From Alphaproteobacteria bacterium (GTDB lineage Bacteria; Pseudomonadota; Alphaproteobacteria; SP197), in NCBI GenBank assembly GCA_964291265.2, contig OZ219747.1, forward strand, positions 320,001-384,000: 64,000 nucleotides of DNA. Reading direction: 5' to 3'. A model generated the notes under the pieces. It was not told the DNA's origin and did not search any database. It saw nothing but the letters and a program-made list of their open reading frames with translations. Below are positions 54,726 to 57,833 of the stretch, piece by piece. The first letter of the stretch is position 1; every line of letters starts with the position of its first letter. The position numbers were made by a program, and so were the translations under genes.

Positions 54726-54817
54726 CAGGACCATTCCTTTGTCGGGCCTGTGGATGGCTGATGTGGCAGGGACCTGCACGGTTGAGGCTCCCCGGGTTCA
54801 CTGCGGGCAGGTTTCAG
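54726..54817 (+). repeat. ~95 bp direct repeat, copy 2 (interrupted by IS66; resumes at 57709)
   Basis: Matches 52840-52932; final TGGCC follows the right TSD. Confidence 0.85.
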
Positions 54818-54859
54818 GTAAGCGTTCGGCCACGCGGTGATTGTTGGTGATATTCACCG

Positions 54860-55161
54860 GTTGAGGATGCGTTTGGGAGGCGCACCACGTGGCGGTTCGC
54901 TGTTGGGTCCGAAGACGATGGGTCCGGGTCGGGTTGCTCGTCGTTGGGGTGGCGGCAGGGTGATGAGGCCGTCGCGGTGCATGGCCAGAAAGGCGACATT
55001 CGCCATCATGTTCTTGAGGCCCCGTCGGGCTTGTATCAGCCGGTCTCGCGGCAGAAGGCGCGGGCGATGGCCGCACGGGTGGGGTGCTGGGTGATCAGGG
55101 AGCGCAACAGCGCCATCTCGTGCGCGGTGAAGTCACGGCCGTCGTAACGGCACTCGATCAC
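54860..55161 (-). pseudogene. DUF4338-like passenger gene, premature TGA at 55038 and truncated
   Basis: GTG start overlaps tnpC stop; RYDGRDF...AFCRETG* where the 38 kb copy reads TGG. Confidence 0.7.
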
Positions 55162-57590
55162 CCCGGTTCCATGAGGTCCCTTCGACGCTCCGGGGGCATC
55201 GACCATGGCAGCCACGGGTCGAGGTCATCCGGCGGCTTGCCGCCGTTCTGCGCGCAGGCCTCAAGCCACTCATGAAGCCAGCGCCGAACATTGATGTTGT
55301 TCATGGCAAGGGTGCCGATGACCGAGTACATGATGGCGGTGAAGGCGGCGCCTTCCTCGCTGTCGGAGCCGAAGCTCAGCTTTCTCGCGGTCACCGCACC
55401 CCGGAGGGCTCTCTCGGCAAAGTTGTTGTCCATGGGCACCTGGGGATGGTCGACAAAGACGCACAGTCCCTCGCGGTGACGGATCAGGGAACGCAAGGGC
55501 TTCGCTTCGCGTGCACCCTCGGGCAAGGCGTCGAGTTCCTCCTGAGCCTGCCTGAACAGCGCCTCGACAGCCGCACGAAGGTCCTTCTGCAGGGCATTGA
55601 ACCTCGCTGACTGACGCTTGCGTGCGGGATCGTAGTGCTTCAGCCGTTGCCCATTCAGTGTGTAGATCAGCGCGATCCTGTCGAGCCACTTGTCGCACCA
55701 CTCTTCCAGCCCCTCCTGGCCTGCCGCAGCCTCGATCACATCGCGCCTGGAGTGCGCCCAGCAAAGGCAGAGGATCACCTTGCCATCAAGCTCACGCTCC
55801 AGTTTCCTGTAGACCACGTAGCGGTCGCAAACAAGGAAGACGACACCTTCGGTGGAGGCGAACAGCACCATGGCCACCCGGGCGCTGCGTGACGGGTCGA
55901 TAAGGAAGAAGACGGAGTCGGCGCTGACCGCGGTCCACAGCCAGGCCTTCTGCGAGCGCCCCGAGGCCTTGAGGGACTGGATGCGCCAGCTGGTCTCGTC
56001 GCCGTGGCGCACCGTCAGCCGGTTCTGATGATCGAGGATGGCCTGAGCGAGAGGCGCGAACATCGGCGTCATCTTCTTCATGCCGCCAGCGATCGTTCCC
56101 GGCGCCATCGGCAGTCCCTGGTCTTCCAGCCATCGCGAGACCCGGCGCAGGGGACGCAAGCAGGCGAAGCGCTCATAGAGCACGCATTCCCAGACACTGA
56201 TGCCGAAGGGGGTATTCGCAAGCAAGCGCAAAGGTGGCGGCGCGATGATCTCCGCAGGCGCCGACGAACACTGACAACCACGGCGCCAACGCCCACGTTC
56301 AATCCGCCGGATATGAGCCTTGACATGGACCTCCATGATCGAGGTCTCGTGGCTGCCGTTGGCCACATAGGGCTCGCCGCAACACGGGCACGTGCGCTGC
56401 GATGCCGGTGGATCATGGCGTTCGTGCTTCTCCTTGAGCTTCGGACGCGGAGTGCGCCCGTGGCCGCTCTTGCCGGGTTGCTGACCCCGCTTGTTCCCTG
56501 TGCCTTCCTTCTTCTTCCGCTTCTCGCTCTTCGACCCGAAGCGCGCCGTCGCGTGCTTGGCACGCGTCCCGCGGAGATTCCTCAGCTCGCTCGCCTGTTC
56601 AGCGTTCTTGAGCTTCAGAGCGTCCCTTTCCTGCTCCAGCGCCTCCGCTCGGGCCTGTCCACGCTTCACCTCCCGGCGAGCCTCCTTGAGCTGATCACGA
56701 GTGCGGTCGAGATGAAACTTGAATGTGCCCGCACGGGCACGGGCAGAATTCTTCGCACGGCGCAGGTCAGACGCGGTAGGGATGCGCATTGCTGCGCACC
56801 CCCCGCGCAGATCCGGACGTGGACGTTAATCCATCCGGCTCCTACCTCGGGTACTGGACGGCAAACCACTGGACTAGCCTGCGGCTTCCCGTATCCGATC
56901 CGCCGCCTGTGGCACGCTTGCCCGACACTGCGTTCGGTGCGTGCTTTAGCGTCCCGGATTCCCCTTGGTTGAGGCCCTTTCCTCCAGCGACTCCGCAGAA
57001 GCTAACGCTTCCTTGTTCGCCGCCTTCACAGGTACTACGGCCTCATCCGACTTCTTCAAACCGTACATCATAGGCTTCGGTTTTCTCCTTCCCCATGCGG
57101 TCCCGCCACAACCGGCGGGACGGTTTGAAGATCTCCCAGGGTCCCAACAGAAGGCGTGCGGACGTGCATGGGTTCTCTGACACCGCGGGGCTCGCCGACA
57201 TCTCACCAAATCGATGCCTGCGATGTTGCCTTCGACCAATGCGAAAGCCTCGGCACCCCGGATGATAGCTTTTTCGGTGCTCATTAGCCCTGCCCATCCG
57301 TACCGCTACCGACGCTTCGCCTGCCCCCTCGCGGGAACCGACGCACGGCTCGCGGAGAAACGTGGTTTGGTTACTCCTTCGTTCCAGGGGACTTTCACCC
57401 CCTACCTTCCGCCAGTTCGCCTGGCACACCGCATACGCGCTTCCGCCGCATCCGCACGAACCCGCTCCGCCTCATAGAGCGCACGCCAGTCAGGCGCCTC
57501 GCATGACAAGGCCACTGACGCCCGACATAGGCCGTCACCACCTCCCGTCAGCTGCTGTGTCGCTCCGCGCGTCTCGGCAAAAGTCTTCAT
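55158..57590 (-). CDS. IS66 transposase TnpC in two exons (57590-57430 and 56769-55158)
   Basis: Coiled coil, CPCCG, HGDETSW, CDRY, CWAHSRR, DNNFAERALR; exons join in frame (590 aa from ATG 57590; start uncertain). Confidence 0.85.
56770..57429 (-). ncRNA. ORF-less group II intron (class E-like), 660 nt
   Basis: 5' GTGTG; domain V GAGCCGGATGGATTAACGTCCACGTCCGGATC; domain VI ending CCCTACCGCGTC; only IEP termini remain. Confidence 0.9.
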
Positions 57591-57833
57591 GGCCTCGACC
57601 ATAATCGAGACCAAACGAGTTTACCAGCACTTTCTCAGACGATAGTCAGCAAGACCCAAACCAACCAAAATCAGCCATCACCGAACGGCCGAACGCTTAC
57701 GGTTTCAGTGGCCTGACGACGGCCGTCCCGTCCCGACGTGATCGGTGGGATGCAAGGCAACACGACGGCGGCATGTGCCATCACCCCAATTGCGTGTAGT
57801 GTGCGGCCTCGCCGAAAGGAGAAGCCGTGAAGG

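Follow-up and report, generated by a model that had tools for sequence, protein, structure and literature searches.

The DNA analyzed here is a 64,000-nt stretch of an alphaproteobacterial chromosome (C2:320001-384000), referred to as the window; positions below are window positions unless they are prefixed C2. It holds an insertion sequence (IS) of the IS66 family, whose transposase gene is interrupted on the minus strand by a group II intron of 660 nt. The intron runs from 57429 to 56770, starts with GTGTG (57429-57425) and ends with CCCTACCGCGTC. An earlier note, made from the sequence alone, had described it as a miniature group II intron without an open reading frame (ORF), whose removal rebuilds the transposase, and this observation holds as a whole and in every element. 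We consider it probable that this mini-intron lost its reverse transcriptase (RT)/maturase gene through a deletion in domain IV, and that a full-length intron (94% identical, 13 copies) provides the protein by which it is spliced and copied. This reading builds on direct observations, namely the ribozyme domains, an exact junction at two kinds of site, the anatomy of the deletion, intact protein donors, the identity of the copies and a strand bias.

Boundaries and ribozyme of the mini-intron

The limits of the intron can be read from other copies of the IS. BLASTN against the genome itself recovers intron-free IS paralogues, e.g., C2:927480-929703, in which 57430 runs straight into 56769. As the flanking bases differ at each intron boundary, the limits 57429..56770 are unambiguous. 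The Rfam model RF02005 (group-II-D1D4-6) matches 57395-57171 on the minus strand over its entire length (model positions 1-225 of 225, 170.2 bits, E 4.3e-50), and RF00029 (Intron_gpII, domains V and VI) matches 56843-56771 on the same strand with 33.6 bits at a gathering score of 40. Together with two independent empty-site comparisons, the Rfam E-value excludes chance. Of the features that characterize group II introns, the element has the 5' GUGYG, the domain I core, the domain V/VI features, exon-binding sites (EBSs) complementary to the exons and an exact empty site at the DNA level, while its 3' terminus is UC and not AY.

When the intron is removed, the exons join as ATG CG/T GAC CTG (a slash marks an insertion or splice junction here and below) and the transposase frame is restored. 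The same junction lies within the 598-codon ORF of an intron-free copy (L001), which reads ...EARMRDLRR..., and nine homologues with 57-77% identity align without gaps across it. The product matches PF03050 (E 1.8e-48) and the IS66 family transposase model NF033517 (262 bits, cut-off 180). The joined length calculated in the earlier note, 161 + 1612 = 1773 nt, is correct for a start at ATG 57590, but the N-termini of the homologues make ATG 57602 (MVEAMKTF...) the likely start, with ATG 57590 and TTG 57614 as alternatives. The note had also made full-length transposase dependent on splicing. This is true for each interrupted copy, but not for the element overall, as the copy at C2:927480-929703 is intact and free of the intron.

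The unusual 3' end is a genuine difference from related introns. Full-length copies end in GAC and the three relatives that could be read end in AAC, AAC and GAC, as compared with UC in the mini-intron. In group II introns, the penultimate A is in contact with G1 and promotes the second step of splicing. The spread of identical copies suggests that the UC end is tolerated. A further peculiarity is found in domain V, where the G of the triad stands opposite an A and the usual U is absent; this is non-canonical in the Rfam alignment and is seen in the mini-intron and in all full-length copies. The features of the element are listed in Table 1.

Table 1. Features of the IS66-family element and its intron in window coordinates, from the left to the right end of the element.
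Feature	Position	Strand	Remarks
Left 8-bp target-site duplication CTGAAACC	57701..57708	-	same 8-mer at 54817-54810
IS including the intron	54818-57700	-	2883 nt
Left terminal inverted repeat GTAAGCGTTCGGCC	57687..57700	-	IS end identical in 14/14 copies shown
Transposase exon 1	57430..57602	-	ends ...GCG CGT ATG CG; 9/9 homologues align through, invariant residues inside
ORF-less group II intron	56770..57429	-	GUGUG ... CCCUACCGCGUC; paralogous empty IS sites join 57430/56769
Domain I core	57171..57395	-	Rfam RF02005 group-II-D1D4-6
Internal loop AAAAAGCUAUCAUC with predicted EBS2	57261..57274	-	GCU pairs with AGC, exon -12..-10, 3 bp
EBS1 CGCAU	57239..57243	-	complementary to exon end AUGCG, 5 bp
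EBS3, intron nt 252 (A)	57178..57178	-	pairs with first base of exon 2 (U)
Remnant of N-terminal extension of intron-encoded protein (MMYGLKKSD...GNPGR)	56946..57071	-	closed by TAA where the full-length intron has CAA
Deletion junction in domain IV	56877..56878	-	intron nt 552/553; recurs in diverged copy C2:2248706-2248969
Remnant of C-terminus of intron-encoded protein (WFAVQYPR-stop)	56842..56868	-	full-length counterpart ...QRFTVKHPR-stop
Domain V (GAGCCGGAUGGAUUAACGUCCACGUCCGGAUC)	56810..56841	-	AGC triad and 2-nt CG bulge, by inspection and folding
Domain VI hairpin, GCAA loop	56772..56809	-	bulged branch-point A 56777, 7 nt before 3' end
3' terminal dinucleotide UC, non-canonical	56770..56771	-	AC in full-length copies and in 3/3 relatives read
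Transposase exon 2	55158..56769	-	T GAC CTG ... to TGA; DDE_Tnp_IS66 domain
Empty homing site of the full-length intron	55970..56000	+	opposite transposase strand; insertion elsewhere between 55986 and 55985
Right terminal inverted repeat GGCCGAACGCTTAC	54818..54831	-	
Right 8-bp target-site duplication CTGAAACC	54810..54817	-	

Origin of the mini-intron and exon recognition

The source of the mini-intron is evident from a full-length sister intron of 1919 nt. This intron is present 13 times in the same chromosome, with 0-6 differences between copies, and in every copy the 539-codon frame for an RT/maturase with the YADD motif is open. These relatives could supply the maturase in trans that the earlier note had considered possible. 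The protein matches TIGR04416 with 356 bits as well as RVT_1 and, weakly, GIIM; the profile search matched no endonuclease domain, and just 30 residues follow the GIIM match.

The two introns are 94% identical over nt 1-551 and the last ~100 nt of the mini-intron, and these shared parts are separated by a single alignment gap of ~1259 nt in domain IV, with which the RT motifs and the maturase domain are gone. The deletion is flanked by an N-terminal remnant (VPQAADRIREAAG-stop) and the C-terminal remnant of the intron-encoded protein. The remaining differences cluster in the internal loop at nt 156-169, at the base that follows CGCAU where EBS1 is located and at nt 252, and the penultimate base is U in the mini-intron and A in the full-length intron. 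Judged by this alignment, the mini-intron is a deletion derivative without the RT/maturase gene, i.e., the non-autonomous intron that had been proposed. Its deletion junction was spanned by no match among 40 other genomes searched. A junction 23-mer with two degenerate positions likewise gave 0 occurrences in genome_contigs and 0 in metagenome_contigs, where records of the own genome are possibly excluded. The nearest proteins of solved structure belong to other intron classes and the Rfam family name gives no class; the intron may be of class D, class E or another endonuclease-less class.

Exon recognition was examined in a pairing register calibrated on six introns, i.e., the full-length intron, a subfamily copy and four relatives from other genomes. 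The CGCAT at 57243-57239 had been put forward as EBS1, and this assignment is supported by covariation, as the loop changes together with the last six exon bases (-6..-1) in 6/6 other introns, with 5 or 6 of 6 bp in each. The EBS2 loop is hypervariable among subfamilies, and its positions 5-9 pair with exon -13..-9 by 3-5 bp in 6/6 introns (3 in L007). For the mini-intron, a strong helix between EBS2 and the intron-binding site IBS2 was sought and none was found, the best in-register pairing being 3 bp. EBS3 and exon position +1 form a Watson-Crick pair in all five introns with a known exon: A-U in the mini-intron, G-C in the full-length intron, A-U in L007, C-G in L009 and G-C in L010. The register published for RmInt1 is identical, with IBS2 at -9..-13 and a one-base EBS3 (PMC4075523).

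Copies, mobility and competing explanations

A search of the genome for other 660-nt copies and for an RT-encoding parent, as suggested in the earlier note, found both, with 13 identical mini-introns and the 13 full-length copies described above. The 13 mini-introns are 100% identical over 660 nt, and their spread is therefore likely recent. Twelve are found at the same IS site and one in a gene for an ABC-transporter ATPase; two more IS copies hold the mini-intron, one with a 5-nt deletion and one truncated at the 5' end by another insertion. The full-length intron has a separate site in the same IS, ...GGGACTGGATGCG/CCAGCTGG, which is occupied in 10/25 IS copies examined (e.g., C2:1144144-1146062) and empty in the copy of the window.

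The copy outside the IS (C2:2219838-2220497, L003 2039-2698) is inserted, without any surrounding IS, in the sense strand of a gene for a double ABC-transporter ATPase, where it splits the oligo_HPY domain (profile position 33 of 65). The flanking sequence, GGAAGCGGGCATGCG/T, is similar to that at the IS site, GGAAGCGCGTATGCG/T, and the two sites share ~15 nt. When the exons are joined (...GGGCATGCG/TTCCAATG...), the frame is open into a cysteine-rich tail, and the orthologues of 5/5 congeners are continuous exactly at GGAAGCGGGCATGCG/TTCCAATG. A partial ABC paralogue 22 kb away contains an older mini-intron that has the same deletion junction and lacks the TAA, with a non-cognate 5' half and broken up by nested insertions. 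Both copies of the ABC gene found in the genome thus carry a mini-intron.

Several observations separate the history of the mini-intron from that of the IS. Among the 8 complete IS::intron copies, there are 30 variable columns in 2223 exon nt and 0 in 660 intron nt (P ~4e-4 assuming independent sites). In addition, identical IS haplotypes carry either the mini-intron at its own site or the full-length intron at the second site. By cumulative GC skew, replication starts near 0.71 Mb and ends near 3.31 Mb, and relative to these points the lagging-strand template holds 14 of 16 mini-intron copies and 11 of 13 full-length copies (25/29 together). Endonuclease-less introns that use the nascent lagging strand as a primer are known for such a bias (PMC4615759; PMC4424553; PMC8919778).

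The orientation of the IS in turn predicts which intron it contains. Among the 25 IS copies, those with the coding strand as lagging-strand template carry only the mini-intron in 11 cases, only the full-length intron in 1 and both in 1, and 2 are empty. In the opposite orientation, the corresponding numbers are 2, 8, 0 and 0. The test on single-intron copies only (11 mini/1 full-length vs. 2 mini/8 full-length) gives a Fisher P of 0.0015, and in the 9/9 IS copies that carry only the full-length intron, the site of the mini-intron is intact yet empty. Collectively, the invariance of the intron, the shared haplotypes, the ABC-gene copy without an IS and the replication orientation favor mobility of its own over hitch-hiking. 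With the covariation of EBS3 and the first exon base, they point to entry of the mini-intron into IS copies already in place by trans-mobilized retrohoming. The hitch-hiking in the IS that the earlier note had pictured is therefore not the main story, as the intron seems to have reached both these IS copies and the ABC gene by itself.

The mechanism we propose starts with the intron RNA, which would be excised with help of the protein of the full-length intron supplied in trans. The excised RNA would then reverse-splice into single-stranded lagging-strand template DNA at replication forks, where recognition of the target GGAAGCG-N3-AUGCG/U would depend on 5 bp with EBS1, the A-U pair of EBS3 and a weak EBS2 pairing of 3 bp. 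The nascent lagging strand would prime the DNA copy, as in endonuclease-less introns of the RmInt1 type. The mini-intron is oriented in sense with the transposase gene, so that an IS copy carrying it would regain its full-length transposase mRNA by splicing. The sister intron enters the same IS on the opposite strand, and being antisense, it has no way of being removed from the transposase message by splicing. In this scheme, mobility and precedent are the grounds for predicting that the mini-intron is spliced in vivo and uses the protein of its sister.

Other explanations have to be weighed against trans-mobilized retrohoming. The intron might be a passive passenger, immobile and perhaps dead for splicing, that is copied by transposition of the IS with transposase from intron-free copies. 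This would fit with the 8-bp duplication of its own in 7 of 8 complete mini-bearing IS copies, with the existence of an intact intron-free copy, and with the non-canonical 3' end and the weak EBS2 pairing. However, transposition alone explains neither the orientation rule (Fisher P 0.0015) nor the identical copy in the ABC gene without IS sequence around it, and it does not account for the fact that 0 of 30 variable sites fall in the intron or for the IS haplotypes common to mini- and full-length-bearing copies. We regard the passenger explanation as very improbable. It appears likewise very improbable that homologous recombination or gene conversion among IS copies spread the intron without reverse splicing. 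The variable IS sites are clustered like conversion tracts, the haplotypes appear reshuffled and the copy at C2:857243 is without matching flanking repeats, but conversion has no reason to follow the orientation of replication. Moreover, conversion cannot seed an ABC gene that shares only ~15 nt with the IS site, and variants of the flanking IS would be expected to travel with the intron.

A different possibility concerns the role of the intron for the transposase. The gene callers' transposase is a protein of 543 aa at 56789-55158 on the minus strand that starts at an ATG within domain VI (MRIPTAS-DLRR..., with 7 intron-encoded residues), in frame with exon 2. As this ORF is open and on record as a called protein, the transposase might be made from unspliced RNA, with the intron acting as a leader or attenuator only. 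This protein would miss ~60 N-terminal residues that are conserved in 9/9 homologues, including the invariant C38, D42, W43 and R51-A56, and its ATG is buried in the stable helix of domain VI. We find such a start unlikely, and it would in any case be compatible with both splicing and mobility.

Trans-mobilized retrohoming must itself be held against a number of observations that do not favor it. With regard to the ribozyme, the domain V/VI score is below the Rfam gathering threshold (33.6 vs. 40), the penultimate base is U where the full-length copies and 3/3 relatives read have A, and pairing with the exon is limited to 5 bp for EBS1 and 3 bp for EBS2. The 6% divergence from the full-length intron means that recognition by its protein can only be inferred. 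As for mobility, the two ABC-gene copies may represent one event followed by duplication, and the P of ~4e-4 is too optimistic because the variable IS sites are clustered. Two mini-intron copies are on the other strand (767591, which is near the origin, and 2579874), and two IS copies of the favored orientation hold no intron although the site is intact. RNA data also add no support. Four RNA runs (X21-X24; sponge and other metatranscriptomes) cover the intron only, with 85-99% likeness and no exon, and are therefore from relatives in other organisms and uninformative on splicing here. Among contigs of runs X1, X2, X3 and X5, whose library kind is unrecorded, the joined form 56769/57430 occurs in X1, X3 and X5, and as intron-free IS copies exist as DNA, these contigs are no evidence of splicing.

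The contigs contain another junction as well. Contigs of runs X2 and X5 join the 3' end of the intron head-to-tail to its 5' end (...CGCG+AC+GTGTG, full-length type), and the RNA run X24 contains a head-to-tail join of a relative with other letters in between. In the DNA of the genome under study, the head-to-tail junction has 0 occurrences. Such joins may stem from intron circles or from insertions in tandem, and RmInt-type introns are reported to form both.

Relation to known introns and the host element

The closest precedent for the mini-intron is the ORF-less derivatives of TeI3 in Thermosynechococcus elongatus, whose mobilization in trans was shown by assay (Mohr et al., 2010; PMC2882425). 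The resemblance extends to the single deletion in domain IV, the N- and C-terminal ORF remnants, the frame-breaking change in the remnant, the sisters with intact protein in the genome, the many EBS/IBS-paired sites and the EBS-diverged subfamilies. The domain IV ORF deletion with remnants, a related intron with intact protein in the genome and signs of proliferation of its own, which define this type of derivative, are accordingly all found here. The two systems differ in that the driver protein here is without an endonuclease domain, the insertions show a replication-strand bias and the 3' end is UC. Furthermore, most copies here reside in an IS66-family transposase gene, on its coding strand, as opposed to intergenic DNA or other introns for TeI3, and mobilization in trans is predicted here, while for TeI3 it was assayed.

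In its proposed mechanism, the system resembles RmInt1, RmInt2 and Sr.md.I1 of Sinorhizobium. These are endonuclease-less introns of class D that home into IS elements (PMC4615759; PMC4075523), and the ORF that harbors Sr.md.I1 carries the annotation IS66 transposase (PMC4615759). The proteins of this group act in trans, also across related introns (PMC4615759). The introns share IS homing, IBS2 at -9..-13, a one-base EBS3 and the lagging-strand bias with ours (PMC4615759; PMC4075523). An engineered RmInt1-deltaORF with separately supplied protein is the laboratory analogue of the natural mini-intron, but the natural introns of this group encode their own protein and the mini-intron does not. 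Features of the RmInt1 type that the system has are a protein without D/En domains, a one-base EBS3-IBS3 contact, IBS2 at about -13..-9 and the lagging-strand bias. At the DNA level, an intron on a Sinorhizobium plasmid is just ~66% identical, and the sister protein is 55% identical to the 491-residue protein of that plasmid intron, which need not be RmInt1.

The mini-intron has likely been copied to many sites by the enzyme of its sister, as a parasite of a parasite, which is a rare kind of element but one that is already known. What is distinctive here is the orientation-dependent sharing of one IS by two sisters, the non-canonical 3' end and the insertion in a conserved cellular gene. We tentatively extend this to a consortium of three layers, which we see as possible but would not call probable. 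In such a consortium, replication orientation would allot IS copies with the coding strand as lagging-strand template to the spliceable, non-autonomous mini-intron, which would leave them potentially competent for transposition, but only as long as the maturase of the sister is expressed. The other IS copies would go to the antisense autonomous intron and be inactivated permanently. Among ORF-less derivatives of endonuclease-less introns, the mini-intron would then be the first natural one that proliferates actively, and it would do so with a UC 3' end. One IS66-family element would thus provide homing sites for two sister introns on its two strands, with a DNA transposon under the control of a retroelement's protein.

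Only one proliferating case has been studied well; it comes from a thermophilic cyanobacterium and has a driver protein with endonuclease. This genome offers a second natural system of a different mechanistic class, with an endonuclease-less driver and a replication-strand bias. It also contains an internal control, as the same IS is invaded by either sister according to orientation. In the ABC gene, splicing could be measured free of intron-free DNA copies.

The host element has the DDE transposase, the terminal repeats beginning with GTAAGCG and the 8-bp duplication of the IS66 family, where such repeats and duplications are typical. It differs from the canonical form in its single transposase ORF. 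No accessory genes like tnpA and tnpB were found between the IS ends, which enclose one long ORF only; a single-ORF subgroup of IS66 is known. The transposase is also without ~54 residues of the coiled-coil region (alignment columns 108-160) that are present in all 9 homologues. Matching 8-mers flank 10 of the 11 IS copies with both flanks shown, and as each copy has its own, the IS has truly transposed. The IS::intron copy at C2:857243-860125 is without them (CATTGTGG vs. CGTAACTG), and this points to a rearrangement involving two IS copies. The copy at 767862, tested as rearrangement partner, has its own intact repeats. An inversion involving copy 857243 was considered as the origin of the off-strand copy 767591 and was rejected, as the 767 copy has matching 8-bp repeats of its own. 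Removal of the intron yields an open frame of 600 codons in 7 of the 8 complete IS::intron copies, which fits either recent insertion or maintained function.

The genome is very heavily loaded with IS elements and introns, and several of these are nested. A diverged mini-intron contains an insert of 5.7 kb (C2:2243020-2248712, L005) made up of at least two other repeats, and each of these is found more than 10 times in near-identical form in the chromosome. Another element, of ~840 nt, is nested in subfamily introns near their nt 396 (C2:1375421-1376265, L022 ~522-1366; C2:1339355-1340087; split at 2243021/2248008). It starts with GUGUG and has, by eye, a domain V-like hairpin with an AGC triad, a G-U wobble and a CG bulge, and it matches Rfam group-II-D1D4-3 weakly (24.6 bits, gathering score 32, E 0.045). 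It is a candidate for a second ORF-less intron that forms a twintron. Within the host IS, the 340-nt tail past the transposase stop contains an ORF of 59 residues (55215-55036, minus strand) without a Pfam match. The mini-intron also has consequences for annotation, since gene callers report a 543-residue transposase that starts in the intron together with a truncated ABC ATPase.

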